Origin: Flavobacteriales bacterium
Lineage (GTDB): Bacteria; Bacteroidota; Bacteroidia; UBA10329
Assembly (NCBI GenBank): GCA_041687875.1
Contig: JBDNJH010000138.1
Span: 1 to 41,118 of the forward strand
Length of the DNA: 41,118 bases
Direction of reading: 5' to 3'
In this document: positions 7,809-25,413 of the stretch, one piece after another
Position numbering within the stretch: the first letter of the stretch is position 1
Layout of the letters: each line of letters opens with the position of its first letter
The notes under the pieces: generated by a model
Databases searched by the model: none
What the model was told of the DNA's origin: nothing
What the model saw: only the letters and a program-made list of their open reading frames with translations
Position numbers and translations under genes: made by a program

Positions 7809-10208
7809 TTACTTGCCAAACAATTTTTTCCAACTCCATTTTGAGGTCGGTTCTTCGGAGTAACCATAGCCATAGCCATAACCATAACCATAGCCAAATC
7901 TAGATTGCTTCACATCGTTGAGCACAATAGAAACGCTTTTGATTTTTTTCGTACGATTCAATTCGTTGATGTAAGAAAGAGTAGGGATTTTGGAGACCCC
8001 TTGACGTACAACATATATGGTAGTAGTGGCGTAATCTGAGAGTATCAAGCTATCTGTTACCAAACCAATTGGAGGTGTATCAATTATAACGTAATCGTAT
8101 ACGTTAGAAAGGTCTTCTAACATTTTCGGAAGGTTTTTCCCCATTAGAAGCTCAGAAGGGTTTGGGGGAATTGGACCGCCTACCATCACGTCAAAATTCG
8201 TGTAATCAGTTTTGGAGATAGCTGAATTCAGGTCGCAGATGTTAGCCAGAACCGAACTAGCCCCTACATCATTAGAAATATTGAAGTAGTCTGCTAACCT
8301 GGGCTTCCTCAGGTCTAAACCAACAACAATTGTTTTGCTTCCGCCCAATGCCAAAGACGCAGCTAAATTGATAGAGAAAAAGGATTTCCCTTCAGATCCT
8401 ATTGCAGATGTTACTTGAATGATTTTGCGATTCTTCTTCGACTCGGTTGATTGATTACCAATAATAAAATTCAAATTGGTACGAATAGACCTAAATGCTT
8501 CAGAAATCGGTGAGTTGGTATTGTTTTTTATTACCACATAATCTGATGACTCGTTGTGCGGAATAATTCCCAAAAAAGGAGTGCTGATATGGCTTTTCAA
8601 ATCATCTAAACTCTTTATTCTGTTATCGAATATCATTACTAGAAACACGTAAACCAATGGGATAGACAAACCACCAATGAGTCCAAGCAGATAGATGATG
8701 TTCTTTTTGGGACTAATTGGTTTGTCAGAACTCCGAGCTTTGTCAAGTACCATGTTGTCAGAAAGGGTAGAAGCAAGTAGAATGGAGTTTTCAGATTTTT
8801 TTTCAAGCAGTAGGAGATAAAGACTCTCTTTGATTGTGTATTGCCGCTGTAACGCCAATAATTCGTATTCGGCCTGCGGCAATAAATTAACTTTGAGTTC
8901 CACCTTGGCCAGTTGTTTTCCAACCTCTTTTTTTGAAGCCGAAAGCCCACTCCTGATACTTTGAATGTTATTGATTAATGAGGCTTTGGCCTCCTTGATT
9001 TTTGCATCGATGGAACCTACCAAGGGATTATATGCCTTGGTGAATCCTAGCAGACTTTCCCGTTCTGACGAAAGTTCACTTAAGGTTACTATGAGGCTGG
9101 TGAGAAGCGGATCGGTGAGTCCTAAACTGGATGGAGATGCGTTATTGAGGTCTTTGTCACTTTTGATATAATCTTCCAAATAATTTATGACGCTCAGTTT
9201 TACGTCCAGTTCCGACATGGTTTTGTCCAATGCGCCTACCTGCTGAAGAAAATAATCAGCTTCTGAACTTACGTCTGTAATACCATATTGGCTCTTATAG
9301 CTTTTTATATCCTCCTCAAGCTTTCTTAAATCTTTTGTAATGACCTCTAGTTGATCATCGATGAATCCAAGCGTATTTGAAGCAAGCTGGTTCTTCTTTT
9401 CTATGTTGTCTTGTATGTAAACATTGAGTACTGCGTTGAGTAAATCAACACCTCTATCAGGTACGTTGTCATTCACGGTTAATTTAAGGATACTCGCTTT
9501 TTCTCTGGCTTCTTCGACCTTCAACTTCTCCAAATACACAGAGGTCAGTAGGTCAATATTTCTAACCGTCAGTTCATAATCTTGGCTAAGAGCAGAGTCT
9601 CCTAATACCATGGTCTCAAAGAATTCTGTTTTGACAAGTCTGAAGTTTCCTAGTTCATTACTAAAGTTCTCACCCAGTTGCACCTCTTCAAAAAACTCAA
9701 CATCATCATGTGTGTGCAGATTCACAAAGGAATAAGCGATTTGCACATGAATTCCATCTTCCTTGATAGATAATTCCATCGTAAAAATGGGAGGGGTTTC
9801 CTCCGATGCGATATAATCGAGTTTAATTGGAAGTTCTTTGTACAAATCCCTTTTACGAAGACCAAGTATCACAGCATAATTGACATTTAACTCTTGTGTT
9901 GCCAAAGCCCTTTCCATCATACTTCTGGACGATAGAATGGCAATCTCATTTTCGATGTTTCGTTTTTTTCCGGCAAAACCAACTTCGTCTAGTATGCTCT
10001 GTGAAATGTCATTGCCCTCATCCTCAACTAGGACCGTGGCCACCATACCATACTCTGGCTGTTCGTGCCAAATATATCCGTAGGCCAATAATAGGCTCAA
10101 GGGAATGAAAACTGCGAATAGCTTCCAGCTTTCCAACACGAGCTGAAACACCTTAGCCAAGTCTAACTCGTCTTCTTCCTGCTGGTTATGTGGTTGAATG
10201 TCTGACAT
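7809..10208 (-). CDS. wzc: Polysaccharide co-polymerase / BY tyrosine autokinase
   Basis: Two TM segments around a coiled-coil periplasmic region, Walker A TSAIGSEGKS, DLRKP, IIDTPP and a C-terminal YGYGYGYGYGY cluster. Confidence 0.93.
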   Translation of the reverse strand: MSDIQPHNQQEEDELDLAKVFQLVLESWKLFAVFIPLSLLLAYGYIWHEQPEYGMVATVLVEDEGNDISQSILDEVGFAGKKRNIENEIAILSSRSMMERALATQELNVNYAVILGLRKRDLYKELPIKLDYIASEETPPIFTMELSIKEDGIHVQIAYSFVNLHTHDDVEFFEEVQLGENFSNELGNFRLVKTEFFETMVLGDSALSQDYELTVRNIDLLTSVYLEKLKVEEAREKASILKLTVNDNVPDRGVDLLNAVLNVYIQDNIEKKNQLASNTLGFIDDQLEVITKDLRKLEEDIKSYKSQYGITDVSSEADYFLQQVGALDKTMSELDVKLSVINYLEDYIKSDKDLNNASPSSLGLTDPLLTSLIVTLSELSSERESLLGFTKAYNPLVGSIDAKIKEAKASLINNIQSIRSGLSASKKEVGKQLAKVELKVNLLPQAEYELLALQRQYTIKESLYLLLLEKKSENSILLASTLSDNMVLDKARSSDKPISPKKNIIYLLGLIGGLSIPLVYVFLVMIFDNRIKSLDDLKSHISTPFLGIIPHNESSDYVVIKNNTNSPISEAFRSIRTNLNFIIGNQSTESKKNRKIIQVTSAIGSEGKSFFSINLAASLALGGSKTIVVGLDLRKPRLADYFNISNDVGASSVLANICDLNSAISKTDYTNFDVMVGGPIPPNPSELLMGKNLPKMLEDLSNVYDYVIIDTPPIGLVTDSLILSDYATTTIYVVRQGVSKIPTLSYINELNRTKKIKSVSIVLNDVKQSRFGYGYGYGYGYGYSEEPTSKWSWKKLFGK

Positions 10209-10213
10209 GGAAA

Positions 10214-10978
10214 TTATGGGAAGGTTATCCTTGAAAAGAAAAGCCCCAAGGCTGTTAGGCCACTGAATACAATCGGCAGAATCTTATACCATGCATCGAC
10301 AGATGCAAACTTGCCTTTTCCAGGCTCAACGTATAGGATGTCATTGTTGTGGAGATAGTAATATTCTGATTCAAAGAAGGCCTTTGAGGTAAGATCGAGC
10401 TTAACGAATTTGCGCTGACCCGATTCTTCCCTTATTACCAAGACGTTTACCCTTCTTGCAAAGATGGTCATGTCTCCAGCCAATCCGAGCGCCTCAACAA
10501 GAGTTATCTTCTCGTTAGGAATAGTGTATACGCCAGGGTTCAACACTTCCCCTAAAACGGTAACCTTAAAATTGCTGATACGCATATTGACCGTTGGACC
10601 AACAAGGTACTTTTCCAATAGTCCTTTTATCTCATTTTTGGCGATCTGAGTTGATTTTCCGGTGACCATAATTGATCCGATAAGTGGCATTTCAATGTTT
10701 CCTATGGCATCTACCAAATAGGTGTTGGCAACCTGTTGGTCTGTTGTTTCTCCTACAACATTAAAAAAACTGCTAGCTTCCTTGCTTAAACTTGTAACAT
10801 GTATGGATAATAAGTCACCAGCTTGGATGACGGCTTCAAAATTATGAGTGATTGGCTGAACGGAAAGCGTATCCGAAATATCCTGAAAATACGATATGTC
10901 CTTTCGGGTGATACACGACTGGGAAAGTAACAGAATGGAAGATAATAGCAAGAAGAGGATTCCCGAGCGAATTTTCAT
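10214..10978 (-). CDS. wza: Polysaccharide export outer-membrane lipoprotein
   Basis: Lipobox SQSC, Poly_export region (IQAGDLLSI, GNIEMPLIG) and SLBB region (VTVLGEV..PG, TLVEALGLAGD); directly upstream of wzc. Confidence 0.92.
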   Translation of the reverse strand: MKIRSGILFLLLSSILLLSQSCITRKDISYFQDISDTLSVQPITHNFEAVIQAGDLLSIHVTSLSKEASSFFNVVGETTDQQVANTYLVDAIGNIEMPLIGSIMVTGKSTQIAKNEIKGLLEKYLVGPTVNMRISNFKVTVLGEVLNPGVYTIPNEKITLVEALGLAGDMTIFARRVNVLVIREESGQRKFVKLDLTSKAFFESEYYYLHNNDILYVEPGKGKFASVDAWYKILPIVFSGLTALGLFFSRITFP

Positions 10979-10982
10979 GGCG

Positions 10983-10990
10983 CAAATATA
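10983..10990 (-). promoter_or_regulatory. Bacteroidota -7 promoter element for wza-wzc
   Basis: TATATTTG, a perfect TAnnTTTG match, 4 nt before the wza ATG. Confidence 0.6.
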
Positions 10991-11092
10991 GTTGTTAGGT
11001 CTATTTGAGAGTATTTAACTTAGGCACGGAATCATATGGATCAACAGCGTTCTGTCGGTGACCGTGAATTACAGTCAAAACGCGAACTTCCA

Positions 11093-12040
11093 TTATTGTT
11101 TGTGAGCCAATGATTTTTTGGTCTCTCCGTAGCTTTGGTACACTGAGGAAATACCTTTTTCCAGTTCGATACTGTACTGCCAACCCATTTCACGCAATTT
11201 AGAAACGTCCATCAATTTCCGTGGAGAGCCATCCGGTTTAGAAGAATCGAAGACCAGTTCACCCTTGAAACCAACAATCTTTTTAATCAGTTCGGCTAAT
11301 TCAAGAATTGAAACATCTTTACCTGATCCAATGTTGACATGTTCAGATTCTTGGTAGTTGTCCATAAGGAATAGGCACCCTTCAGCCAAATCGTCAACGT
11401 GAAGAAATTCCCGTTTAGGAGTGCCAGAGCCCCATATCTCCACACTTTTCTGACCCTGTAATTTCGCTTCGTGAAACTTACGGATAAGAGCTGGCAACAC
11501 ATGCGAATTCTGGAGGTCATAATTGTCATTCGGACCGTAAAGGTTCGTGGGCATGGCCGAAATGAAATTGCAACCATACTGGTGGCTGTACTCCTGACAG
11601 AGTTTGATACCAGTGATTTTTGCTATTGCATAAGGTTCATTCGTTGGCTCTAAAGAACCAGTCAATAAGGATGATTCCTTAATAGGTTGTTCTGCAAACT
11701 TCGGGTAAATACAGGAAGACCCCAAAAATAATAGCTTCGTTACGTTGTGCAGGTAAGCGGCATGAATGACATTGGCCGCAATCATCAGATTGTCGTAAAG
11801 GAACTCTGCCCGATAAGTGTTATTAGCCTGAATACCACCAACTTTGGCCGCTGCTAGGTAAACGTATTTGGGTTTTTCCTTTTCGAAGAATTCCTGTACA
11901 GCAGCCTGATTTCTAAGGTCCAACTGCTTCGAGGTTCTGGTAATGAGGTTCCTATACCCACGGTTTTCAAGGGCTCTAACAATAGCCGAACCGACCATGC
12001 CACGGTGTCCCGCAACATAAACTTTTGCATTCTTGTCCAT
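11093..12040 (-). CDS. fcl: GDP-L-fucose synthase
   Basis: [42 protein letters not shown] and [15 protein letters not shown]. Confidence 0.96.
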
Positions 12041-12095
12041 TAAGAAAGGCTATCTGAGTAGTGGGATACGAGTGCATACATATATAGAGAGAATC

Positions 12096-13214
12096 TCATT
12101 CATGGTATTGAAAGATTTTGTGTCCTGATTCTTTAAGAAGGCGGTCGCGTTTAAACAATTCCAGCTCCGAACGCATCATATCTTCCACTAGAGCTTGCAA
12201 ATCATACTTTGGTTTCCACCCAAGTTTTTCATTTGATTTGGTTGGGTCTCCAAGTAAAAGGTCTACCTCAGTTGGCCTGAAGTATTTAGGGTCTACTTTT
12301 ACTACTGTTTGTCCTATTGGTAACTGATACTCTTTCAGTTCACATTTGGCAACTTTGGCTATTTCATTGTCTCCATTTCCTTCGAAAGTTAAACTGATGC
12401 CTACCTGATTAAAAGCTAATCTGACAAATTCCCGAATGCTTGTAGTCACACCAGTGGCAATTACAAAATCTTCAGGTTTTTCCTGCTGAAGAATGAGATA
12501 CATAGCTTCCACATAATCTTTAGCATGGCCCCAATCTCGTTGGGAATTCAAATTGCCCAGATAGACGCAATCCTGAAGACCTAGCGCAATTCTTGAAGCG
12601 GCCCGCGTAATCTTACGTGTAACAAATGTTTCCCCCCTCAAAGGAGATTCATGATTGAAAAGGATGCCGTTGCAGGCAAACATATTATATGCTTCTCTAT
12701 AATTTACTGTAATCCAGTAGGCATACATTTTTGCAACTGCATAAGGGGACCTTGGGTAGAATGGAGTCGTTTCTTTTTGAGGTGTTTCCTGTACCAACCC
12801 GTATAGTTCTGAAGTAGACGCTTGATAAATTCTGGTTTTCTCAGCAAGGCCCAGAATTCTAACAGCTTCCAACAACCTTAAGGTCCCGATACCATCCACG
12901 TTCGCAACGTATTCCGGAGTATCAAAACTCACCTTAACGTGCGACATGGCTCCGAGGTTGTAAATCTCATCCGGCTGTACTTTTTGAATGATGGACGTGA
13001 GATTGAGCGAATCGGTAAGGTCGCCATAATGAAGATGGAAGTGTACATTTTCCTGATGCGGATCCTGATATAGATGATCTATTCGATCCGTGTTGAATAA
13101 CGATGACCGCCTCTTTATACCATGCACTTCGTAACCCTTCTTCAAAAGTAGTTCTGAGAGATAAGCTCCGTCTTGTCCGGTGACCCCAGTGATTAATGCC
13201 TTTTTTCTTGTCAT
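12096..13214 (-). CDS. gmd: GDP-mannose 4,6-dehydratase
   Basis: [52 protein letters not shown] and RDWGHAKDY. Confidence 0.97.
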
Positions 13215-13217
13215 GAG

Positions 13218-13940
13218 TTAATTACGTTTGGAAAATGCTTCTTTCAACATCAACCATAAGAAATACGTATTAGTCGTCAAATATCGTTTAAATAGTCGTT
13301 TGGGCTCCAAACTGAATCGATAGAACCATTCCAAACCAACTTTTCTCATCCATTCAGGAGCACGTTTGTCAATTCTGGCAAACAGAAGGAAGGCTCCGCC
13401 AACTCCGAACATGGGAGAGTTGATTCGATTGTTCATCCTGTTCATCCATAGTTCCTGTTTAGGACAACCCAATCCCACAAGAACCATGTCAGGGTCGAAT
13501 TCGTTTATTAACTTGGCCTGATGGTCAAAGTCGAATTCATCAATCGGGAGAAACGGGGGGGAATAGGTTTTGTGGATGATATTCCGTGTGAGAAGTTCCG
13601 AAGAAATCGTTTTTAGAACCTCTTCTGTAGAACCGATCAAAAAGACCTTCAATGATTCCTGGCCCGCCCTGTTCACCAAGGAGAACATTACATCGTTCCC
13701 TGCAATACGTTCCTGTTCTGCCCCATGAAATAACTTTAGTGAAAAGACCACAGGCATACCGTCTGGAACAACATAACTGGCCTTAGAAAGAACATTTTTA
13801 AAATTCGGGTTGAGGTGATGTTCGCAGACCATGTGTACGTTTACAAAACATGAATATCCAGATTGAGCCAAGCTTAGGTCAATGAATTCTGAATAAGGTA
13901 AGATTGAGAAGGGTATGTTGAATATAGATTGTGTATTCAT
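13218..13940 (-). CDS. WecB/TagA/CpsF family glycosyltransferase (GT26)
   Basis: VPDGMPV, ERIAGND, VGLGCPKQE and RAPEWMRKVGLEWFYRFSLEPKRLFKRY. Confidence 0.92.
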   Translation of the reverse strand: MNTQSIFNIPFSILPYSEFIDLSLAQSGYSCFVNVHMVCEHHLNPNFKNVLSKASYVVPDGMPVVFSLKLFHGAEQERIAGNDVMFSLVNRAGQESLKVFLIGSTEEVLKTISSELLTRNIIHKTYSPPFLPIDEFDFDHQAKLINEFDPDMVLVGLGCPKQELWMNRMNNRINSPMFGVGGAFLLFARIDKRAPEWMRKVGLEWFYRFSLEPKRLFKRYLTTNTYFLWLMLKEAFSKRN

Positions 13941-14731
13941 TCTTTCACTTCAAACAGGGAGGCATATTCGATTTTTTCAAAAACATCACACTTCCCATCA
14001 ATGGTAGCATCTAGAATTCGTCTTCCGTCTGCTTCAAACATTGACCGTGCTTTTGCATAAGCTAATTCGGAACGATACAGGTCCGGTAGTTGCCATTTAA
14101 TGCCTTTGGGAAAGTATTCTGGATGAAAGTGGTTCGTGTCTGTACCCGTTCTGATTTCTGTTTTATTTGGTGTTCCCTTATCGGCAAAACTATGATCTAA
14201 TCCCACAATGATAACCTCATCAAATCCCATATGGTAAGCCAACTGAAGGGAAGCGTAGGTCACGGTTCCTCCAGAATACACCCCCTTCGACAGATCGCAA
14301 GAAAAACCATCTTCCAGAGCATTCTGAACATAAAAGTATCGCTGGCTTTGATTTTTGAACAGACTTCTTTTGGTCCAGTTTACAAAAGTTTCACTTTTAA
14401 GCGCATCAAGATCTTCGTGGAACTCGTCAATTACCAGTTCGTTTATTACAGTGCAATACGTGGTGCTGAAGTTTTCATTGAAAAGCAGGTAAATTCTATT
14501 CATGCCTACCGTAATCTCATCCTTGATTAATGTTAGGTCGATTTTCTTAAGACTTGGTCCGTTTGCTATCAGAAAGCACCTTTCACCCTTATGACGATTC
14601 TTAATTTCGGCTAATCGTTCATGCTGATTCTTTGCCATTTGCCATGTAAGCCAATGGGGAATGTTGGATATTCGCCTTTTGAGTCCGTCCGCTATTCTTC
14701 CTATTGTTATTTCACTGATTCTTATTCTCAT
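13937..14731 (-). CDS. DUF115/Maf-like protein, putative CMP-ulosonate transferase (sialyltransferase-like fold)
   Basis: KNRHKGERCFLIANGPSL, TVTYASLQLAYHMGFDEVIIVGLDHSF and NHFHPEYF motifs; clustered with a CMP-sugar synthetase. Confidence 0.75.
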   Translation of the reverse strand: MRIRISEITIGRIADGLKRRISNIPHWLTWQMAKNQHERLAEIKNRHKGERCFLIANGPSLKKIDLTLIKDEITVGMNRIYLLFNENFSTTYCTVINELVIDEFHEDLDALKSETFVNWTKRSLFKNQSQRYFYVQNALEDGFSCDLSKGVYSGGTVTYASLQLAYHMGFDEVIIVGLDHSFADKGTPNKTEIRTGTDTNHFHPEYFPKGIKWQLPDLYRSELAYAKARSMFEADGRRILDATIDGKCDVFEKIEYASLFEVKE

Positions 14732-14739
14732 TCAAGTTG

Positions 14740-15867
14740 TTATGTATTGCTGATTGATAATTTTTCGCGAATTGGGGTCGTAATTAGGACGATTACCACA
14801 ATGAGAACCACGGTAGCCAAGTTATAGCCATAAACAATTGACTCTGTTGATCCTAGCATCAGAATCCAAGACAACAATACCCAAAACTGTTTTTCACTAT
14901 TTCGATACGAACGTAAAACTAGAAGCCAAAATATAAGAAGCCCGAGAATTCCTACCTGGAAAAACAGCTCGAAAACTAAGTTGTGCATATGGGTGAGAAC
15001 GTTGGTAATACCCAATCGGTTGCTATCACCATAGCCCCACAGCCACTCTAAATCAACATTGTTTTTCAAAAAATCAAGTGCGTTCAGCCATACTGTTTTT
15101 CTGCCCGTTGCGGATTCATATTGTTAAATATTGTTTCTTGGCACAACGCTTTGGACAATGTCCAGTGAAAAAATACGGACCAAAAGTTGACTGATGGTTT
15201 CCCAGAAAAACGGGATACTCCAGAAAAACAGACCAAGCCAACGGATGGCTCGATATCTTATTTTCTGGCTTAGAAAAGCACTTGCCAAGAGCACGATAAC
15301 CGCGTTGAAATACGGTCCTCTTCTACCAAAAGTAAAAAACACAAACAATGTGAGGGCGAGCACAATAAGAAACGTTTTCTTATCCTTATGTAACAAACTG
15401 ACAATCAGTGTTAACGTTCCGAATAAATGGATATCCAAGGTTGAGTTAAAGAACAGAACGTTCTTAATGTTGTAATTAGTGCCAAGACCTAACGAAAAAT
15501 CAGGTGATAGGATGGCCGGGATTATGAATCCTATAATATAAATGACAAGGAAGTACTGGGGAAGCTTGGTCGATTTGATGGAAATTCCAGAAGCCTTTAA
15601 GTTGATCGGAATCAGCAACAAAAATAACCCGGAGGCCAGACCGGATATTGGATCATATCTACGCATAAAGAAGAAAATGCTGTACCATGCGAGAAACGCC
15701 AGAAGTAATTTATCATGAGCTCCGAATGATAAGCGTTTTTTTTTAACATGCACATGATACACAAAGTAGACGATTTGGAACAATACGCTGATTACTCTGA
15801 AGTAGGGTGAGATGTCATCAAGTTCGTATGACATCAACAGAATTAAAAAAGTGAGAATGAGGTACAA
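14740..15867 (-). pseudogene. Wzy polymerase / O-antigen ligase-like membrane protein interrupted by an in-frame TAA at 15124-15126
   Basis: ORFs 15124-15867 and 14740-15069 share a frame. Reading through gives PRNNI*QYESATGRKTVWLNALDFLKN...WGYG...THMHN, the typical Wzy_C/ligase loop, in a multi-TM protein. Confidence 0.75.
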
Positions 15868-15870
15868 AAG

Positions 15871-16824
15871 CTACATTCTTTTCAACAATTTTTTAATCCT
15901 CAATCCAATTGGGTTTTTAGACTGAATAAAGGTCTTCATGTAGAGTGGATACAACCCGTATCTTTTTTTCCAAGCTGTTGCAAGGCGATCTAGTTCTTCA
16001 GTTTCAGTAAGTTTTCCTGAATTTACCTCAGCAATGACCCGCAGAGTATCGTTTGTTATAGTCTTAATGACTGAGGTGACAGCTGGATTGAAATCGTCCT
16101 TTGGCCCCTTAATGTTTCCTTCCTGAACATGTCCAGGAGACTCTTTTTTCATAAATGAAAAGTCCGAATGTTCAATGATTTTATTGATTTGACCTAGATT
16201 AAGTTCAAAACCTAGGAACTTCTGTAGTTCCTTTACGTGGTTCGATTTATTGGAGACGAGGTCTTCATAACTAACTAACATCACTCGGTCTTTTCCATAA
16301 GACTGTTGAAGTTTGAGGTAGCTGGTTACATTGTAGCACCATGAAATACTGAGGCCGACAGAACGGTTTCGGTAGAATTCAGCTACATCCTTTTCTTTAT
16401 CATGTGAAAAATATCGTTGCCGATATTCGGTGAAATGAAATCTCGCCATTGAATAGGCCACATCTACTGGATTCCGATAAATGTAGATGATTTTTGCTTT
16501 TGGAAATGTGACTAATAGCTTTTCCAAAGACCTGTTGGCGTCACTGTGAGTCCATAACAAATCATTTTCACTGAAATCTGTGAAACTCAGATTCGTAAAA
16601 TACCTTCTAGACAATGTAAGATGAATGTTTTCATTCTCGAATAAGATGGTATTCACCTTATCGTGACCTGAGAACGAACCTTGCCAGCCGTTCAGAACAT
16701 CATCCGAAAAAAATAACTGGTTTAAATTACGAGGCCCTGAATTGTACTGCTCCTGAAAGGATATTTGTAGAATCCGATTTAATAATGAGTTGCCACTTTT
16801 CGGAAATCCAGCTTGAAGAATCAT
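15871..16824 (-). CDS. PAPS-dependent sulfotransferase
   Basis: 5'-PSB loop AGFPKSGNSLL, 3'-PB motif YIYRNPVDVAYS, and VSYEDL. Confidence 0.9.
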   Translation of the reverse strand: MILQAGFPKSGNSLLNRILQISFQEQYNSGPRNLNQLFFSDDVLNGWQGSFSGHDKVNTILFENENIHLTLSRRYFTNLSFTDFSENDLLWTHSDANRSLEKLLVTFPKAKIIYIYRNPVDVAYSMARFHFTEYRQRYFSHDKEKDVAEFYRNRSVGLSISWCYNVTSYLKLQQSYGKDRVMLVSYEDLVSNKSNHVKELQKFLGFELNLGQINKIIEHSDFSFMKKESPGHVQEGNIKGPKDDFNPAVTSVIKTITNDTLRVIAEVNSGKLTETEELDRLATAWKKRYGLYPLYMKTFIQSKNPIGLRIKKLLKRM

Positions 16825-18031
16825 TGATAATGCGATAGTTTAATAACCCTAGACAAACGATACAGATTATAAGGAGTCTATGTACACGGTGCTTAGCGCG
16901 CCAAAAGTAATATAAACATGGAATCAGATTCCAAGCAACCAAAGATACGCCCCATTGTATGCTAAGTGGGTATTTTCCCATGGTTATGAACATGACAGCT
17001 AACGAAGCGGCCATCCCCACAACCGACAGGAGCGCAGCGATACGAATCTTGTTCACATATACTAAACGTGCATACAATACTTGCCCGATAAATATCAAAG
17101 AGTAAATTGGCATAAATGACATAAAGGACGACAACATGAACTCGTAGTTGGATGGGTAGAATAAATATAAGACGATAGGAGCTGCCAATGTTAAGCCAAG
17201 CAGCATCAATTGGGCAGGAACAACAAGACTCGTAAAAACCCATTTCAAATAAACAGAATCAGATGAAGTTCGAATAAAATTTGCCGAATACAGGTTTGCT
17301 GAAGCGATATACATGCCAGTTATCGTAAGTAGCGTAAATGAAACGGAAGAACCAAGAATTTCCAAATCACTATATTCAAAAGGAGCCAGATAAACGACCA
17401 ACCAGTTAATCAACATCATGCTGGCACCCGGTATTAGCGTGAGGATGGAAACCTTTGTTGACCCATAAAATTCTTTCAAGTTGAATACGGGTTTCGGTCC
17501 CTTCAACACCCATATTGCAACAGGAAATGCGAAAGACAGACCCAAAAAGATGGAAAACAAGTGCACATTTCGAATAAATAGCAGGGCAACGCAGACCAAG
17601 ATTCCTTTAAGACCCTCCTCCAAGAAAGCAGATCTTAAATTGTTTCCGTTACGCACATCTATGTATGAGTAGATTCTCGTGACAGGAGAAACAGCGATTA
17701 TTAGAATCAAAGAAACGAGTAACGGCTTCGATATTGTAGAGAACCCTCTAGGTATTTCGAGGGCAAAGGCTACAATTGCGAAAAACAGTCCTAAGAGTAA
17801 GCTTTTTCCAATGTAAAGTCCCTGCTTACTTGTATCACCCATTAAGACGGAATTATGTGACCCTCCGGTTCCTATCACGTACACCACTTTTTGAAAGTTG
17901 ACCAATGTTATAAACAGCGTGAAATCTACTGGAGACAAGTATTTTCCAGCTAGAATAACCTGAAGCGCAAGAACGAGTCTGCCGGAATATTTAAATGCGT
18001 ACGGTAATAATCTTAAAACGCGGCTTTTCAA
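16727..18031 (-). CDS. Putative Wzx flippase
   Basis: 434-aa polytopic membrane protein with ILAGKYLSPVDF, resembling the Wzx 'ARxLxPxxFG' N-terminus; located in the polysaccharide cluster; TTG start. Confidence 0.65.
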   Translation of the reverse strand: MKSRVLRLLPYAFKYSGRLVLALQVILAGKYLSPVDFTLFITLVNFQKVVYVIGTGGSHNSVLMGDTSKQGLYIGKSLLLGLFFAIVAFALEIPRGFSTISKPLLVSLILIIAVSPVTRIYSYIDVRNGNNLRSAFLEEGLKGILVCVALLFIRNVHLFSIFLGLSFAFPVAIWVLKGPKPVFNLKEFYGSTKVSILTLIPGASMMLINWLVVYLAPFEYSDLEILGSSVSFTLLTITGMYIASANLYSANFIRTSSDSVYLKWVFTSLVVPAQLMLLGLTLAAPIVLYLFYPSNYEFMLSSFMSFMPIYSLIFIGQVLYARLVYVNKIRIAALLSVVGMAASLAVMFITMGKYPLSIQWGVSLVAWNLIPCLYYFWRAKHRVHRLLIICIVCLGLLNYRIINDSSSWISEKWQLIIKSDSTNILSGAVQFRAS

Positions 18032-18078
18032 GTTGGGAGTTTTGATTTTAGCAATGTTTTAACCGTGAAGAATTAACT

Positions 18079-18816
18079 CTAATTAGGATCATATAAGCGT
18101 TTACTGATACCCCCATCAACTTCTATGTTTGTTCCTGTCAAGAATCGGCATTTATCTGAAGAGAGGAACAGGCAGAGTTCCGCAATTTCTTCGGGCTGAC
18201 CAATACGATTAATGGGATGGTAACTTTCGAGTAGTTTATAGCCAGCTTCGTCATCTTTGAAACCAGCTTTCAGCATTTCTGTTTCCACAGCGGCAGGGCT
18301 AATGCAATTGATGCGTACCCGGTCGCGGAGGTCAATGGCCAAGGCTTGAGTTAGACCGACAAGTCCAGCTTTGCTCGTAGCGTAGGCAACGAATCTAGGC
18401 TTGGTTTGGGTGGCGTGTATGCTGCCAATGTTGATAATGCAGCCTTTTTCTTTCTCCAACATGGGGACGAAAAATTTAGACAGGACAAAGGGAGCACTTA
18501 GGTTCACATTCAGTGTTTTTTGCCAAGCTTTGTGCGTCAATTCGTCAACTGGTGCAAGGATTTGAGTTGCGGAATTGTTTATCAGTACGTCTAAACGACC
18601 AATCTCTTGGACATAAGTTTCCGACCACGACTTAAAATAATCTGCATCCTCAACTAGTCTGTTCAGGTCAATTGCGTAGTTCTTGTCTACATAATTTGCA
18701 TCCGGTTCAGATCTGCTCATACCCACAACAAAATAGCCATTATCATGATAGATTTTGGCTATTGAGCTTCCAATTCCACCTGAAGCTCCTGTGATGAGAA
18801 CGACTTTTTTCGTCAT
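18079..18816 (-). CDS. Classical SDR family NAD(P)-dependent oxidoreductase
   Basis: TGASGGIG, LDVLINNS, catalytic YATSK, and RINCISP. Confidence 0.92.
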   Translation of the reverse strand: MTKKVVLITGASGGIGSSIAKIYHDNGYFVVGMSRSEPDANYVDKNYAIDLNRLVEDADYFKSWSETYVQEIGRLDVLINNSATQILAPVDELTHKAWQKTLNVNLSAPFVLSKFFVPMLEKEKGCIINIGSIHATQTKPRFVAYATSKAGLVGLTQALAIDLRDRVRINCISPAAVETEMLKAGFKDDEAGYKLLESYHPINRIGQPEEIAELCLFLSSDKCRFLTGTNIEVDGGISKRLYDPN

Positions 18817-18819
18817 GCT

Positions 18820-19755
18820 TTAAACGTTGAGAAATCCAAAAAGAAGCGAAATGGCTTTATGACTGGCTCGAATTACAGCGTCTTTCGTGTTCGACCCGTT
18901 GTGAGTTCCGAAGATGGCTTTATCGTAACTTCTAAGTTTAGATTCTGTTGGTAGCGGTTCAACCTCAAACACATCCAAACCAACCGAGTGAACCTTTCCA
19001 CTTTCAATTCCAGCTATCAAGGCATTTTCATCGATGATTGGCCCTCTTGACACATTCACCACCCGAACGCCATGCTTCATAAGGGAAATGGTTTCTGCGT
19101 TCACCATGTGTCTTGTGTGTTGGTTGAGCGCACAGGTGGTGACTACAAAATCGCATATCTCAAGTTTATTTGGCCATGGGGCAAAATCATATCGCACCAA
19201 ATCTTCTGGTCGTTTTTCGGCAAATGGATCATAAACGTGAATGAACATATCGAAGGCATGGAGTCGTTTTGCAACCGATTTTCCAATGTCTCCAAAACCC
19301 ACAAGAGCAACATGCTTTCCTGTTAAGGAAATACCTGCAGGTTTAGGCCATTGGTGGTTGCGAACGCCACGATCAATGGCGTAAGTCTCACGGGCCAGAC
19401 CAATCACATTGGAGACCGCAATATCAGCCACTTCAGCACCGAACATATTGGGAGTGTTGATAATCGGAATTCCAAGCTTTTCGCAGGCTTTGAAATCGAC
19501 ATTGTCAACACCAACGCCCCATTTTACAGCAGCCTTGAGGTTTCCTTTTACTCCTGCTTCAAAAACTCGTTCCGTAGCAGGGTCATCTCCAATAATCCAA
19601 CCGTCAACTCCCGGAAGGATTTCCATCAATTGCTCTTCCGAGAGGGTTTGGACAACCTTTGGGGTTATCAATTCGATTCCTTTTTCGGCAAACATTGCTC
19701 GAAATTCATCAATCATCCCGAGCATTGGTGGGCAAGTAACCAGAACTTTCATCAT
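18820..19755 (-). CDS. D-isomer-specific 2-hydroxyacid dehydrogenase (phosphoglycerate dehydrogenase-like, no ACT domain)
   Basis: GVGVDNVD, NTPN, GFGDIG, NVSRGPII, LDVFEVEPL and a catalytic H in GTHNGS. TGATG coupling to the upstream gene. Confidence 0.9.
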   Translation of the reverse strand: MMKVLVTCPPMLGMIDEFRAMFAEKGIELITPKVVQTLSEEQLMEILPGVDGWIIGDDPATERVFEAGVKGNLKAAVKWGVGVDNVDFKACEKLGIPIINTPNMFGAEVADIAVSNVIGLARETYAIDRGVRNHQWPKPAGISLTGKHVALVGFGDIGKSVAKRLHAFDMFIHVYDPFAEKRPEDLVRYDFAPWPNKLEICDFVVTTCALNQHTRHMVNAETISLMKHGVRVVNVSRGPIIDENALIAGIESGKVHSVGLDVFEVEPLPTESKLRSYDKAIFGTHNGSNTKDAVIRASHKAISLLFGFLNV

Positions 19756-20435
19756 CAATTGTTCAATAGTGATTTCTTAACCAATTCGGCCAATTCCCAA
19801 CTTTGCGCATCGTCAATATCGATGGATTCAAAGCGTGGTGTTTCAAACAACATTGGTTTCTTTCCGATACGTGCATTGGTTTGTTCGAATGCCTTTTTTG
19901 AGAACACGTAGAGGCAAGAGTTTTCCTCAAACCAAGGTTCCAAATCCTGCGTTCTGAGAAGCACATTTGGGTCGTGATTCACTGCGCTACCATCTTCTCG
20001 GTAAAAGCGCGTCTGTTGTTTTGTCACTGAGAATAAACTGTCAAAACCTTTAGTCAGCCCTTTCTCATATTCCAACACCGCTTGTCTGAAGGTGTTAGCC
20101 GAGATGTTCGGGTTGGTGGTGTGGGTCATCAGATATGATGTGGCATCCACATTCAGGATGTCATCTTCAATAACGCGGTTCATCGAAACGAAATCACCTT
20201 GAATCTCAATCGGTCGGTCTCGGATAATGATACGGTCTGTTTCAACGAGACCGTTATCTGCAAGAATGTGTCTTGCGTCTGTATTGATGATTACTTTTTC
20301 GATTTCATCCACGGCTAAAAGAGCTTCTAGAACCCACTTGAAAAGTGGTTTTCCTGCAAAGTGTTTGAAATTTTTTCCAACTACGCGCTCACTGTTTGCC
20401 TTCATTGGCAACAACGCAACTGTTTTATACGTCAT
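19755..20435 (-). CDS. Acylneuraminate/ulosonate cytidylyltransferase family protein (NeuA/KdsB-like)
   Basis: PMKANSERVVGKN, GKPL, THTTNP, RTQDL and SIDIDD. Confidence 0.88.
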   Translation of the reverse strand: MTYKTVALLPMKANSERVVGKNFKHFAGKPLFKWVLEALLAVDEIEKVIINTDARHILADNGLVETDRIIIRDRPIEIQGDFVSMNRVIEDDILNVDATSYLMTHTTNPNISANTFRQAVLEYEKGLTKGFDSLFSVTKQQTRFYREDGSAVNHDPNVLLRTQDLEPWFEENSCLYVFSKKAFEQTNARIGKKPMLFETPRFESIDIDDAQSWELAELVKKSLLNN

Positions 20436-21219
20436 TTTTATTGATTGAAATTGTTTGGTCTATCTCCAACCATTTCAGGTTGAAATCATACTGTCGTTTG
20501 TTATAAAGAAGGTTCAATTCTTCTGGATGAGTTGAATTTGGTTCAAAGGTATCCCAATGAGTCGGAATCAGTGTTTTCACCTTCAGTTCTTCAGCCCAGA
20601 GTAAGGCTTCTTTGGGTGACATATTCCCTATGATGCCTTCTCGCTCCCTGAAATAATTTCGTTCGTTTATTGGAAGAAATGCGAAGTCAATCGTTTTTGC
20701 TTCCAACGCTTTGGTGATTTTCTCATGCGGTATCGTATCACCCGCGTGATAAATCACGGTTCCTCCGAAATCAAGGACATAACCTAAGAATTTTGAGTGG
20801 CCATTCGCAGAGAACTCCAGCTCGGTGTGTGCCGAAGGGACGGTTCGAATGGTAATTGATGAATTCCTAGAATCGATTGTGCCTTCATCAGCAATTCCGA
20901 AATTGTGAGTGCCTATTCCATTGGACTCGAGAACTTCTGCGCAGTCGTAACTGCCAAGAATCTTGGCGGATGGATTGATTTTGATGAGTTCAGCTAGGCT
21001 GAGTGGGTCACAATGGTCTTCGTGTGAATGAGTAATCAAAATCAGGTCAATGTTGCTCAACTCATTGAATTCAATTTTCGATGGACTCACTCGTTTTAGG
21101 TGCTCTCCATATTTGTCGGCAACATATTCCGTTAAATATGGGTCAATGAGAATTCTAGTTTGCTGAAACTTAAAAAGAAACCCGGTTTGCCCGAAGGCTG
21201 TAATTTGAAGAGCGCTCAT
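20425..21219 (-). CDS. Metallo-beta-lactamase-fold hydrolase (UlaG-like, possible lactonase)
   Basis: ILIDPYL, THSHEDHCD (HxHxDH), YHAGDT and IPTHWDTF. Confidence 0.85.
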   Translation of the reverse strand: MSALQITAFGQTGFLFKFQQTRILIDPYLTEYVADKYGEHLKRVSPSKIEFNELSNIDLILITHSHEDHCDPLSLAELIKINPSAKILGSYDCAEVLESNGIGTHNFGIADEGTIDSRNSSITIRTVPSAHTELEFSANGHSKFLGYVLDFGGTVIYHAGDTIPHEKITKALEAKTIDFAFLPINERNYFREREGIIGNMSPKEALLWAEELKVKTLIPTHWDTFEPNSTHPEELNLLYNKRQYDFNLKWLEIDQTISINKNDV

Positions 21220-22100
21220 TTCGTAGGGTAGAAATAAACTTCCTTTCTCTTTTTAGAGAGTTTGCGATGCTCATGGTTTCCCTTGTAAGACCCGTAGAAT
21301 TGGCAGGTTCTGAAAATAAAGATGCTCAGAAAGTTGCCGGCCACCTTTTTTTGTTCCAATGCTTTAGAGAGGTCTGAAAAAACGCCAACGAAAACGTACC
21401 TGAAGAAGTCCCAGATAGATAGCTGTACTTCTGGCATGATGACCTGTAGAGCGATGGCTTCTCGTTCGTACCGGATTTTTACCTGCTTCCATTTTTCTTC
21501 GTGGATGTGGTAGACCGTGGCCTTTGAACAGTATGCAATTTTGCACCCTCTGTTGCACATTTCTTTCGACCAGAATATGTCTTCTAATCCGGTCAGTTCC
21601 TCGTCAAATGGGAGCTCGATCCAAAGACTTTTTCTGATGCATGAGTTGGCGTTGTTGCTGAAGAACCCTTCCTGCGGAATCTTATCATACTCTGGATAAT
21701 ATTTCGCGAAAATCTGGTGCTCGCTGAATTTTGTCGAGTCGGTTCCAATTTGCTTACCATAGGTCATGGCAATTTCTGGATTTTGGAAGGGGCTAACCAA
21801 ATTGTCAATCCATTGGCTATCCTTCGGAACACAATGACCGGATATAATCACCAGAAATTCTCCTTTCGCAGCCTCGCAACCGTAGTTGAGAGACCTCCCA
21901 AAAGTAAAATCCTTCTTTTTGATGTTAACGATTCTAACTTGAAAGGATCTTGCAATCTCCAAGGTTTTGTCTGTAGACCCAGAATCAACAATGACGGTTT
22001 CAATTTCATGAGTGGCGGTCTGTTCAGAAATCATCGAAAGGAGCTCCCGCAGGTGCTTCTCTTCGTTGAACGTTCGAATTACAATACTCACCAAGGCCAT
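21216..22100 (-). CDS. Glycosyltransferase family 2
   Basis: VSIVIRTFNEE, VDSGSTDKT, FTFGRSLNYG and FDEELTGLED. Confidence 0.92.
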   Translation of the reverse strand: MALVSIVIRTFNEEKHLRELLSMISEQTATHEIETVIVDSGSTDKTLEIARSFQVRIVNIKKKDFTFGRSLNYGCEAAKGEFLVIISGHCVPKDSQWIDNLVSPFQNPEIAMTYGKQIGTDSTKFSEHQIFAKYYPEYDKIPQEGFFSNNANSCIRKSLWIELPFDEELTGLEDIFWSKEMCNRGCKIAYCSKATVYHIHEEKWKQVKIRYEREAIALQVIMPEVQLSIWDFFRYVFVGVFSDLSKALEQKKVAGNFLSIFIFRTCQFYGSYKGNHEHRKLSKKRKEVYFYPTK

Positions 22101-24113: not shown

Positions 24114-24560
24114 ATGGAGTTGAGCATCTTTTCTGACGAACATTTTATGAAGGAAGCCTTGAAAGAGGCGCACAAGGCTTTTGATAAGGACGAAGTTCCC
24201 GTTGGAGTGGTGGTAGTGGCCAATAAACGCATCATTGCACGAGCGCATAATCTTACCGAAGTCTTGAATGACGTGACCGCCCATGCCGAAATGCAGGCCA
24301 TTACCTCAGCAGCCGATTACATTGGCGGCAAATACCTGAAAGGCTGCACCATTTACGTGACCTTAGAACCTTGCGTGATGTGTGCTGGTGCGCTTTTCTG
24401 GAGCCAAGTGGATAGCGTTGTCTTTGGCGCGGCAGATGAAAAACGTGGTTTCTCAACCGTTGGCAACCTCCTACATCCCAAAACAAAAGTGAAAGGAGGC
24501 GTGATGGCTGATGATTGTGCCGATTTGCTCAGATTGTTTTTTCAGAAGAAGAGGAAGTAA
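24114..24560 (+). CDS. tadA: tRNA-specific adenosine deaminase / nucleoside deaminase
   Basis: DEHFMKEAL, EVPVG, TAHAEM and TLEPCVMCAGA zinc motifs. Start placed at 24114 from the promoter position; the ORF extends to 24093. Confidence 0.88.
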   Translation: MELSIFSDEHFMKEALKEAHKAFDKDEVPVGVVVVANKRIIARAHNLTEVLNDVTAHAEMQAITSAADYIGGKYLKGCTIYVTLEPCVMCAGALFWSQVDSVVFGAADEKRGFSTVGNLLHPKTKVKGGVMADDCADLLRLFFQKKRK

Positions 24561-24592
24561 GGGGCATCGACAAAGCCCGCGCTACACACTGT

Positions 24593-24874
24593 TTAACTTT
24601 TTGGTCTGCGGCTGGTGTGAAAAACACTAAAAACCGTTACCGTATTATCATCTTCTGAAAAGAATACCACGAAAGGAAAGCCTCTCACCAATGCGTGCCG
24701 AAACGCGCCATACTTTATCTGAAACGATGTCGGTCTGGACGCAATGTCCGAATATGTTTCGTCCAATGAAGAGAGAAAGTGTTCACCAAGTCCAGCCAGT
24801 TTCTCCTCGTACCACAAGTATGCGTCAATCGTTTCTACTGATGCTTCTTGCCTGATAAATAGCGTGAAACTCAT
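24593..24874 (-). CDS. Type II toxin, RelE/ParE family
   Basis: 93 aa with DAYLWYEEKLAGLGEHF, FPFVVFF and VFSVFHTSRRP; ATGA overlap with the upstream antitoxin. Confidence 0.85.
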   Translation of the reverse strand: MSFTLFIRQEASVETIDAYLWYEEKLAGLGEHFLSSLDETYSDIASRPTSFQIKYGAFRHALVRGFPFVVFFSEDDNTVTVFSVFHTSRRPKS

Positions 24875-25402: not shown

Positions 25403-25413
25403 ATTACACAGTT

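Follow-up and report, generated by a model that had tools for sequence, protein, structure and literature searches.

A gene cassette in a Flavobacteriales polysaccharide locus and a possible oxidative route to a CMP-activated 2-keto sugar

How a 2-keto sugar acid might be supplied for activation with CMP where no condensing synthase is encoded nearby is the question raised by a 41,118-nt stretch of DNA (hereafter the window) from a Flavobacteriales bacterium (assembly GCA_041687875.1, contig JBDNJH010000138.1). A first-pass annotation had named genes for an MBL-fold hydrolase (MBL), a cytidylyltransferase (CT), a D-2-hydroxyacid dehydrogenase (HADH), an SDR and a DUF115 protein, and had proposed that they make and transfer a CMP-activated ulosonate by way of sugar oxidation. 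All five genes were confirmed on the minus strand, and Pfam scans of the 35 ORFs bore out that the window contains no NeuB, KdsA or aldolase. That gene list had left out a family-2 glycosyltransferase (GT2c), which belongs to the conserved cassette (66 of 70 loci, see below) and shares 4 nt with the MBL gene; the unit therefore begins at 22100 and not at 21219.

Gene products encoded at the locus

The features of the window were as follows.

138-7744, plus strand: CysC, CysD, CysN, HldE-like kinase/nucleotidyltransferase, WbaP-like initiating transferase and Wzi-like protein (Pfam)
7809-13940, minus strand: WecG/TagA-family transferase, GDP-mannose 4,6-dehydratase, GDP-fucose-synthase-like epimerase/reductase, Wza and Wzc (Pfam)
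13937-14731, minus strand: DUF115/MptE-like protein (PF01973, 49.6 bits)
14740-15867, minus strand: Wzy-like polymerase gene, split by one in-frame TAA (15124-15126)
15871-16824, minus strand: sulfotransferase (Pfam Sulfotransfer_1, 82 bits), in keeping with a sulfated polymer
16727-18031, minus strand: membrane protein with about nine hydrophobic segments (hydropathy scan)
18079-18816, minus strand: SDR (Pfam adh_short_C2, 167 bits)
18820-19758, minus strand: HADH, phosphoglycerate dehydrogenase (PGDH)-like (Pfam 2-Hacid_dh_C, 162.6 bits)
19755-20435, minus strand: CT, a CTP_transf_3 cytidylyltransferase (PF02348, 66.6 bits)
20425-21219, minus strand: MBL hydrolase (Pfam Lactamase_B_2, 90 bits)
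21216-22100, minus strand: GT2c, first gene of the cassette (Pfam Glycos_transf_2, 76.6 bits)

The tight coupling reported earlier for MBL, CT, HADH and SDR was evident from overlaps of 11 nt (MBL/CT) and 4 nt (CT/HADH) and a gap of 3 nt between HADH and SDR. The two pieces of the split polymerase gene share a frame, are separated by 54 nt and carry the Wzy_C match in the 3' piece (Pfam). The membrane protein had no Pfam or NCBIfam match and is a possible flippase. The genes at 7809-13940 provide export and GDP-6-deoxyhexose supply, and CysC, CysD and CysN provide PAPS.

By sequence, CT is classed as a NeuA/KdsB-type enzyme of a distinct, highly conserved family. It scored 72.5 bits with the PseF model of NCBIfam (cut-off 205.7) and at most 26.8 bits with the KdsB models, and its best PDB match was NeuA (6ifd, 43 bits). 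An invariant histidine (H105, 81 of 81 sequences) stands where the aligned NeuA chains have glutamine. The R-x-Q-D and D-I-D motifs of these chains are kept, the D-I-D aspartates being those described as binding the catalytic Mg in the Neisseria enzyme (PMC2901514). HADH scored 196 bits with the PGDH model (NCBIfam cut-off 454), with 1wwk as its best PDB match (166 bits), and GFGDIG followed by YDP suggests NAD as cofactor; it would turn a sugar acid into its 2-keto form by oxidation at C2, the direction of the reaction also being presumed. MBL, with the zinc motif HSHEDH and 60.5 bits against the UlaG model (cut-off 306), is a putative sugar-acid lactonase. The best matches of the SDR were glucose/aldohexose 1-dehydrogenases in both NCBIfam (glucose 1-dehydrogenase, 189.6 bits, cut-off 215) and the PDB (3vtz, a glucose 1-dehydrogenase, and 2dtd). 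It is a candidate sugar 1-dehydrogenase or tailoring oxidoreductase, the assignment as an aldose 1-dehydrogenase following only from best-match resemblance below the cut-off; its MSRS motif is typical of NADP(H) users and could indicate a reductive role.

Conservation of the cassette and the source of the keto acid

Co-occurrence across genomes was followed in 80 loci from 8 phyla that carry a CT homolog (61-69% identity), mostly derived from MAGs of unknown completeness. In 70 of them HADH was no more than 6 kb from CT; near CT in these HADH-type loci were a homolog of GT2c (45-60% identical, CT-adjacent) in 66, an SDR in 52 and MBL in 32. Since 30 of the 70 had no lactonase and 18 no SDR near CT, the conserved core is only GT2c-CT-HADH. 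A gene order shared by 66-70 of the 80 loci, spread over 8 phyla, is far more than chance would give, and in the congener G007 a block of the same five genes adjoins aspS. Fusions were also frequent: 77 long CT homologs included 71 GT2-CT, three CT-HADH, one HAD-CT and one CT-HpcH fusions, and 26 long representatives of the CT family included CT-SDR (8), CT/HADH (7), GT2/CT (3), HAD (2), HpcH (1), HMGL-like (1) and GT29 sialyltransferase-like (1) fusions. Polysaccharide loci are mosaics and DUF115 lies 3.3 kb from the SDR, but the view that these genes are unrelated neighbours without a single pathway is scarcely credible, being already contradicted by the order conserved over 8 phyla, the overlapping genes and the many fusions.

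In six of the 80 loci a class II pyruvate aldolase (HpcH) is encoded directly upstream of CT, and HADH and GT2c are found in none of the six; all are from Verrucomicrobiota and do not represent six independent events. Every one of the 76 loci with usable flanks had either HADH (70) or HpcH (6), never both. This alternation, together with the CT-HADH and CT-HpcH fusions, gives comparative support to HADH as the maker of the keto acid used by CT. A second alternation concerns the lactonase: the HADH-type loci had MBL (32/70) or an SMP-30 lactonase homolog (8/70) and in no case both, and five of the eight SMP-30 genes stood where MBL is found in other loci, immediately upstream of GT2c. Among solved structures, those closest to the SMP-30 homolog include 7plb and regucalcin, and the either/or pattern supports MBL as a lactonase.

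No alignment column separated HADH-type from aldolase-type CTs at the thresholds set, and a tree placed the aldolase-type CTs within the HADH-type set. The product of such an aldolase is 3-deoxy, whereas that of HADH from an ordinary aldonate is not; the likeness of the two CT types is unexplained and fits only if CT ignores C3.

From the observed gene content, synteny, two either/or replacements and fusions, we infer the following chemistry, along with the kind of sugar and a role for GT2c. With somewhat better than even confidence, we consider GT2c, MBL, CT, HADH, SDR and the downstream DUF115 to be one module, leading from a sugar through lactone, sugar acid, 2-keto acid and CMP-sugar to a glycan. 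The SDR would oxidise C1 of a free reducing sugar to a lactone; this sugar may be an aldose, and a uronate fits equally well. MBL, or the SMP-30 protein in other genomes, would open the lactone to the sugar acid, and the NAD-type HADH would convert the C2 hydroxyl to a ketone. The NeuA-like CT would then join the cyclic hemiketal to CMP, and the sialyltransferase-fold DUF115, the DXD-less GT2c or both would move the sugar to a glycan. CT-SDR fusions are unusual on such a route, as they would unite its first and last steps.

Searches for a synthase elsewhere

The whole genome containing the window (G000) and that of G007 (98% complete) were searched for synthase and HpcH-type genes, and no true NeuB or HpcH was found in either. 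In G000 all DAHP_synth_1 matches and weak NeuB cross-matches lay on other contigs (C240, C145 and C86), and the kdsB model found nothing. Of 40 carrier genomes, 24 had no NeuB match and four had weak matches only, so that 28 lacked a true NeuB, in support of the first-pass reading; the other 12 had a strong NeuB match, in one case about 15 kb from the CT gene.

A rather unlikely alternative is that a synthase encoded elsewhere provides the ulosonate, perhaps Kdo or Kdo-8-P of LPS biosynthesis, and that the cassette modifies and re-activates it. On this view HADH, SDR and lactonase would epimerise the sugar, or would oxidise its distal end, first to a lactone and finally to a diacid, and CT would activate the derivative. 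The phyla represented in the 80 loci are all diderm and make Kdo, so that housekeeping Kdo stays a possible precursor, and G000 has WaaA, LpxC and a DAHPS-like paralog adjoining a sugar-phosphate isomerase-like fusion. The HAD phosphatase-CT fusions would be expected for a phosphorylated synthase product, and the CT-SDR fusions point to an SDR step near that of CT. However, the carbon on which D-2-hydroxyacid dehydrogenases act is the one alpha to the carboxyl group, and Kdo already has a ketone there. HADH and aldolase, moreover, replace one another in the manner of two sources of the keto acid. The annotated recurrent neighbour clusters of the CT loci included no KdsA or NeuB-type gene, and the cassette is sporadic within the genus, with a close CT homolog in 1 of 21 other genomes, as against KdsB in 10 of 12 congeners searched.

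The transfer step and related pathways

DUF115 had been described as Maf-like, and the fold search agreed: the best matches of its AF2 model (pLDDT 89.8) were Maf (5mu5, E 4.3e-7) and then the sialyltransferases ST3Gal, CstII and ST8Sia. With a weak match to WaaZ (34.6 bits, cut-off 200), it may be the CMP-ulosonate transferase. GT2c could be a CMP-sugar transferase, a hydrolase freeing a sugar from an NDP-sugar, or a glycosylator of the new residue. Possible, if doubtful, is that GT2c and not DUF115 is the dedicated CMP-sugar transferase, its DXD lost since no metal has to bridge a monophosphate donor, with DUF115 as a second or alternative transferase; concerning the last step only, this is compatible with the oxidative route. 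Of all the partners, GT2c shows the closest tie to CT (66/70 loci, 71 fusion clusters), and of 39 loci flanked by 9 kb or more on both sides, 36 had GT2c and 23 had DUF115. In place of the canonical DXD stands an invariant S87-G88-H89, which lines up with DCD in K4CP and with DSD in TarS. The G-E-D region, which we take to be the catalytic-base region, is kept, and a hydropathy scan found no hydrophobic segment, indicating a soluble protein. Against this, the AF2 model (pLDDT 91.9) has an ordinary GT2 fold (K4CP, TarP, WrtF, ppGalNAcT), the search yielding only NDP-sugar-dependent GT2 enzymes, and we know of no GT2 enzyme with a CMP-sugar donor. GT2c is also absent from all six aldolase-type loci although their CTs are indistinguishable from the others, and fused domains may catalyse non-consecutive steps.

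That CT activates a non-sugar, glycerate-type hydroxy- or phospho-acid, made or consumed by HADH and attached as a substituent, with GT2c acting like glucosyl-3-phosphoglycerate synthase, is improbable. Among named enzymes, HADH comes closest to phosphoglycerate dehydrogenases, and the nearest ESM Atlas feature cluster of GT2c is auto-named glucosyl-3-phosphoglycerate synthase family, but the GT2c profile scored 29-30 bits with GpgS against 61 with K4CP and 57 with TarS. Such a scheme gives no role to a lactonase that occurs in two unrelated folds, a sialyltransferase-fold DUF115 or the GT29-CT fusion. Moreover, what CTP_transf_3 enzymes join to CMP is a cyclic hemiketal, and an acid of three carbons is too short to form one.

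For the preferred oxidative route no published account was found, in agreement with the first-pass view that it is not a characterised pathway. The CMP-Kdo pathway (KdsD, KdsA, KdsC, KdsB; WaaA, WaaZ) likewise uses a CTP_transf_3 enzyme to activate a 2-keto sugar acid, and further likenesses are the DUF115-WaaZ match and an N-terminal S-x-R-x-x-G-K pattern of CT that presumably resembles KdsB. Unlike that pathway, the cassette has no PEP-condensing KdsA or HAD phosphatase, its CT scores poorly with the KdsB models, and the keto group seems to come from a dehydrogenase. Among nonulosonic acid pathways (Neu5Ac by NeuC/NeuB/NeuA; pseudaminic and legionaminic acids), the likeness lies in the NeuA/PseF-related CT with its motifs and in DUF115, and PseG and NeuC, GT-like NDP-sugar hydrolases that release the free sugar, would be a model for one of the roles considered for GT2c. 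The loci differ from these in having no NeuB, aminotransferase or acetyltransferase and in the exchange of the sugar-binding Gln for the invariant His.

Weimberg/Dahms-type pathways lead from an aldose 1-dehydrogenase through a lactonase to the aldonate, and Epd/PdxB act in pyridoxal phosphate synthesis. The chemistry proposed for the cassette matches theirs, with an SDR-type sugar 1-dehydrogenase, an SMP-30 or MBL lactonase and, in the manner of PdxB, a D-2-hydroxyacid dehydrogenase converting aldonate to 2-keto acid, but the cassette has no dehydratase; these routes are catabolic or cofactor-making, and to our knowledge none ends in a nucleotide-activated glycan sugar. Bacteroides thetaiotaomicron makes CMP-Kdn with Kdn-9-P synthase, a phosphatase and CMP-Kdn synthetase. 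This is likewise a Bacteroidota polysaccharide locus making a non-amino CMP-ulosonate, but it needs the NeuB-type synthase and HAD phosphatase that are absent from the cassette. Short 2-ulosonic acids other than Kdo do occur in capsules, an example being a 4-deoxy-2-hexulosonic acid in the E. coli K3 capsule (listed among the references of PMC10433991; bioRxiv 10.1101/2025.01.29.635457); that sugar is 4-deoxy, and a link to the cassette is not known. Oxidation, and not the usual carbon-carbon condensation, is most likely what makes the acidic keto-sugar of this locus. The product is possibly a 2-ulosonate that is not 3-deoxy, and the polymer receiving it is probably sulfated, fucose-containing and exported by Wza/Wzc.

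Gene organisation of the polysaccharide locus

ORF calling and Pfam searches showed that the polysaccharide genes form one continuous minus-strand run from 22100 down to 7809, accompanied by a plus-strand group.

Features of the locus (coordinates, strand, description)
21216-22100, minus, family-2 glycosyltransferase (GT2c)
20425-21219, minus, MBL-fold hydrolase
19755-20435, minus, CTP_transf_3 cytidylyltransferase (CT)
18820-19758, minus, D-2-hydroxyacid dehydrogenase (HADH)
18079-18816, minus, SDR
16727-18031, minus, membrane protein, ~9 hydrophobic segments (hydropathy scan)
15871-16824, minus, sulfotransferase
15124-15867 and 14740-15069, minus, Wzy-like gene in two in-frame pieces
13937-14731, minus, MptE-like/DUF115 protein
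down to 7809, minus, WecG-family transferase, GDP-mannose 4,6-dehydratase, GDP-fucose-synthase-like enzyme, Wza, Wzc
138-3201, plus, cysC, cysD, cysN (PAPS synthesis)
3226-4602, plus, HldE-like bifunctional PfkB kinase/cytidylyltransferase-like protein
same plus-strand group, WbaP-like initiating transferase and Wzi-like gene (Pfam)

The genes named in the first-pass annotation were found as described, but the cassette begins with the GT2 gene rather than with the MBL hydrolase. From GT2c through SDR, neighbouring genes overlap by 4, 11 and 4 nt and are then separated by a 3-nt gap. Judged from the gene content of both strands, the locus product is probably a Wza/Wzc-exported polymer, sulfated and containing fucose. 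PAPS genes border a capsule locus that has a sulfotransferase, and sulfotransferases also adjoin the cassette in L031 and on the Gemmobacter fulvus plasmid, which together suggests that the cassette's sugar is frequently part of sulfated polymers. The HldE-like protein could be a source of activated heptose or another sugar; its gene is not recurrent beside the cassette in other loci.

Three further features of the window were recorded. A lone in-frame TAA at 15124-15126 splits the Wzy-like gene (14740-15867, minus strand) into pieces of 247 and 109 aa, which share a frame and have 54 nt between them; the gene could be a pseudogene or carry a nonsense mutation, or the stop could come from an assembly error. 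The membrane protein matched no family in Pfam or NCBIfam. Positions 24500-27000 hold ~2.4 kb with nothing but short ORFs (≤95 aa), and an Rfam scan of 24400-27100 gave no match; the deaminase gene's terminal 60 nt (24500-24559) have a 93%-identical copy at 25467-25526, as would result from an insertion within the 3' end of that gene.

Predicted functions of the cassette proteins

CT belongs to CTP_transf_3 (PF02348; 66.6 bits, gathering score 22.6) and scored below the cut-offs of the subfamily models, with PseF as its best NCBIfam model (72.5 bits, cut-off 205.7) and at most 26.8 bits against KdsB models (cut-offs of at least 193). The nearest solved structure was NeuA (43 bits). Among 8000 candidates scored, 7824 reached E ≤0.001, and relatives at E ≤1e-30 formed 201 clusters at 50% identity. 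Two CT motifs align with those of NeuA chains: R-x-Q-D, with T162, Q163 and D164 each present in 81 of 81 family members and R161 in 78, and D-I-D, the D-x-D metal site, with D206, I207 and D208 each in 81 of 81. In the Neisseria enzyme the D-x-D aspartates bind the catalytic Mg, according to the available text of PMC2901514. In the alignment to NeuA chains, His105 of CT, invariant in all 81 members, replaces the sugar/metal-binding Gln (Gln104 in Neisseria CNS, Gln98 in KdsB).

CT was the only CTP_transf_3 gene detected in the window's genome (G000; 2.9 Mb, 308 contigs, 90% complete), where a search with TIGR00466 (KdsB) gave no match. The idea that CT is the missing KdsB was rejected, as a normal KdsB was found in 10 of the 12 congeners searched and the congener G007 (98% complete) has both a CT homolog and KdsB. 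A close CT homolog occurs in just one of 21 congeners, G007, and is therefore sporadic. Given this distribution, and since WaaA and LpxC were found in G000, the lack of a separate KdsB there is an assembly gap, not a sign of a second role for CT.

HADH contains both Pfam domains of its family (PF02826, 162.6 bits; PF00389, 59.3 bits). Its NAD-binding GxGxxG motif reads GFGDIG and is followed by YDP, the Asp of which presumably points to NAD. It scored 196.2 bits against TIGR01327 (D-3-phosphoglycerate dehydrogenase), below the cut-off of 454, and its closest structure was Pyrococcus phosphoglycerate dehydrogenase (1wwk, 166 bits). The SDR, with its catalytic Y-x-x-x-K present as YATSK, scored 189.6 bits against the glucose 1-dehydrogenase model NF005559 (cut-off 215); its top PDB matches, the glucose/aldose 1-dehydrogenases 3vtz and 2dtd, were just ~20 bits above FabG-type reductases. 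The MBL protein matched Lactamase_B_2 (90 bits), with the HxHxDH motif as HSHEDH at residues 64-69, and scored 60.5 bits against UlaG (L-ascorbate-6-phosphate lactonase), below the cut-off of 306.

The DUF115 protein exceeded the cut-off of PF01973 (49.6 against 34.6 bits) and stayed below those of WaaZ (34.6 bits, cut-off 200) and PseD (22.1 bits, cut-off 670). A sequence search of the PDB gave no match, the fold search alone being informative: with the AF2 model (pLDDT 89.8), the best Foldseek hit was the Maf glycosyltransferase 5mu5 (E 4.3e-7), followed by ST3Gal, CstII and ST8Sia sialyltransferases. Downstream of the cassette on two Rhodobacterales plasmids (L096 and L097) lie very large MptE-like proteins (~910 and ~960 aa), candidates for transferases of the cassette's sugar that polymerise it or combine several domains.

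GT2c has an ordinary soluble GT2 (GT-A) fold (model pLDDT 91.9), for which Foldseek returned generic GT2 enzymes only. The G-E-D region is kept and the DXD motif is lost: the site that reads D-C-D in K4CP and D-S-D in TarS is S-G-H in each of the 31 members aligned. An ESM Atlas lead to glucosyl-3-phosphoglycerate synthase was rejected, GpgS chains scoring 29-30 bits on the GT2c profile against 61 for K4CP.

In the pathway that these assignments would compose, the SDR would oxidise a free sugar to a lactone, which the MBL protein (elsewhere an SMP-30 protein) would open. HADH would then oxidise the resulting sugar acid at C2, CT would activate the cyclic 2-keto acid with CMP, and the DUF115 protein and/or GT2c would transfer the sugar to a glycan. 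We hold this scheme as a whole, from sugar through lactone, sugar acid, 2-keto acid and CMP-sugar to glycan, with moderate confidence on sequence evidence. It essentially retains the oxidative, synthase-independent route to a CMP-activated 2-ulosonate proposed in the first-pass annotation, on the strength of synteny, replacements and fusions, and changes it by adding GT2c as a possible transferase.

Conservation of the core and replacement of its partners

Scanning one genome per species gave 209 CT relatives; the 80 loci retained (42 from Pseudomonadota, 19 from Verrucomicrobiota, 8 from Planctomycetota, the rest from five other phyla) have CTs 61-69% identical to that of the window. To count neighbours, the window's proteins were run in tblastn (E ≤1e-10) wherever possible, because in GC-rich loci the ORF caller sometimes picks antisense ORFs. 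In 70 of the 80 loci an HADH gene is located no more than 6 kb from CT. These 70 HADH-type loci contain GT2c in 66 cases (45-60% identical, usually ending just ahead of the CT start), SDR in 52, MBL in 32 and, anywhere in the locus, DUF115 in 36. No SDR was found near CT in 18 of the 70, and no lactonase in 30; the conserved core is therefore GT2c-CT-HADH, smaller than the proposed scheme. GDP-mannose dehydratase is recurrent (21 loci). In G007, aspS, GT2c, MBL, CT, HADH and SDR follow the order of the window, the five cassette proteins being 67-93% identical and AspS 90%; its DUF115 protein is just 35% identical.

A family of ~488 aa recurs in 21 of the 80 loci (L016, L021, L029, L032 and others), frequently right after the SDR. 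It had no Pfam match and no similarity to orf434, and the one member scanned for hydropathy has three hydrophobic segments.

The lactonase position shows an either/or pattern. A gene of the SMP-30/gluconolactonase family is present in eight loci, all without MBL, and the two occur together in none; in five of the eight it stands immediately before GT2c, in the slot that MBL fills elsewhere, and in two it follows the SDR. The closest solved relatives of the SMP-30 gene include regucalcin and 7plb, which we take to be the Caulobacter xylonolactonase. That one slot is filled by two unrelated folds with only lactonase chemistry in common argues for lactone hydrolysis as the predicted step, and it is this pattern that points to a lactonase role for MBL.

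A second replacement concerns the presumed source of the keto acid. Immediately upstream of CT, six loci (L008, L031, L040, L047, L054 and L065) have a class II pyruvate aldolase of the HpcH/HpaI type, with scores of 133-175 bits against the HpaI, GarL and YfaU models, below every cut-off; none of the six has HADH or GT2c. HADH or aldolase was present in 76 of 76 judgeable loci and both in none, four loci being left unjudged where the sequence ends <500 bp past CT. HADH and aldolase alike yield a 2-keto acid, the substrate class of NeuA/KdsB-type enzymes. A YhcH/DUF386 gene was seen in three of the six aldolase-type loci. All six are from Verrucomicrobiota and so are not six independent events. 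Of the five aldolase-type CTs included in the CT tree (L008 carried the label 'none' there), four form a small clade within the family (SH-aLRT 92) and the fifth lies elsewhere; the tree is effectively unrooted, its outgroup rows being badly extracted ORFs, and ingroup clustering alone was used. At the thresholds set, no column of the CT alignment separates HADH-type from aldolase-type loci. Aldolases give 3-deoxy products, unlike HADH acting on ordinary aldonates, yet the CTs of both locus types look identical.

Fusions join CT to the same partners. Among 77 long CT homologs (E ≤1e-40), 71 are GT2c-CT fusions, 63 of them with the S-G-H pattern; for five of the 71, the GT2 part shares 47-49% identity with GT2c of the window. 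The others comprise three CT-HADH, one HAD-CT and one CT-HpcH fusion, and one protein whose N-terminus received no assignment. In a set of 26 long representatives from an exhaustive search, CT is joined to SDR in eight, HADH in seven, GT2 in three, HAD phosphatase in two, and HpcH, an HMGL-like domain and a GT29 sialyltransferase-like domain in one each; three have no second domain. Some of the genes were called from metagenomes and could be artefacts; one fusion cluster, however, comprises 74 members from 34 contigs. A 622-aa CT-HADH fusion (P0199), 40% identical to the window's CT, came from a eukaryote collection (eukprot) and may represent either contamination or a pathway copy present in a eukaryote.

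These patterns bear on GT2c in two ways. Because aldolase-type loci lack it, it may help to provide the precursor, for instance by cleaving an NDP-sugar to the free sugar in the manner of PseG and NeuC; the fusions with CT and the loss of DXD suggest instead that it transfers the CMP-sugar.

Possible source of the proposed 2-keto acid and biological meaning

The synthase independence suggested in the first-pass annotation agrees with the searches of G000 and G007, in which queries for NeuB, KdsA-type and HpcH genes brought up nothing but paralogs of DAHP-synthase type. Pfam assigned none of the 35 ORFs scanned in the window to the NeuB, DAHP-synthase, HpcH or DHDPS families. The NeuB model gave two weak matches in G000 (31 and 28 bits), both inside DAHP-synthase-type ORFs, and in G007 only weak cross-matches (28-31 bits) with no true NeuB; HpcH was found in neither genome. 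Across carriers the result was mixed: among 40 genomes, no strong NeuB was detected in 28 (24 unmatched, 4 with weak matches of 32-38 bits only) and 12 have one (at least 209 bits), separated in one genome from the CT gene by ~15 kb. The precursor could also come from a housekeeping analogue of Kdo-8-P synthase. The main rival to the oxidative scheme, in which the cassette tailors a Kdo-type sugar taken from the housekeeping pathway, is consistent with the carrier phyla among the 80 loci all being diderm; we consider it less likely than that scheme.

Canonical Kdo-8-P synthase was found above cut-off in none of the 12 congeners and not in G000, yet KdsB and WaaA are found in the genus. Contig C145 of G000 (L004 248-2265) carries a ~335-aa DAHP-synthase-Ibeta-like gene after a fusion gene of ribulose-phosphate-3-epimerase-like/KpsF-type CBS composition, a pair that may encode a non-canonical KdsA and KdsD.

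Returning to the oxidative scheme, either an aldose or a uronate, the latter giving an aldarate, would fit equally well as starting sugar; the gene neighbourhood merely hints at a GDP-mannose-derived one. To our knowledge, all characterised routes to ulosonic acids condense PEP or pyruvate with a sugar. We regard the cassette, on the strength of its sequences, as real and widespread and as a probable variant of CMP-ulosonate biosynthesis. A full-text literature search, with most subscription journals and supplements outside its scope, returned no description of the cassette or of an oxidative CMP-sugar route. In its available text, a recent preprint (bioRxiv 10.64898/2026.04.20.719630, 2026) describes ulosonic acids as the sole sugar class known so far only in CMP-activated form and reports new CMP-linked keto acids in Magnetospirillum; that text does not mention the cassette's pathway. 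Capsules can contain short 2-ulosonic acids, an example being the 4-deoxy-2-hexulosonic acid of the E. coli K3 capsule (cited in PMC10433991; bioRxiv 10.1101/2025.01.29.635457).

We also advance, as a speculative and rather unlikely extension, that at least eight diderm phyla make a non-3-deoxy, hexose- or heptose-derived CMP-2-ulosonate purely by oxidation, without C-C bond formation, and install it with an S-G-H GT2-fold enzyme using the CMP-sugar; this acidic sugar would be a common, overlooked part of environmental exopolysaccharides, many of them sulfated and rich in fucose. The cassette occurs in cultured strains, on plasmids in Sulfitobacter sp. D7, Gemmobacter fulvus and Thalassovita gelatinovora, and also in Luteimonas soli, Solimonas fluminis and Methylobacillus caricis, among others, so that the pathway idea is directly testable. 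If true, a second, oxidation-only route would be a new entry to ulosonic acid chemistry; it would imply an unrecognised acidic sugar in the surface polymers of many environmental bacteria, and would account for thousands of genes mislabelled as CMP-N-acetylneuraminic acid synthetase, phosphoglycerate dehydrogenase or rhamnosyltransferase.
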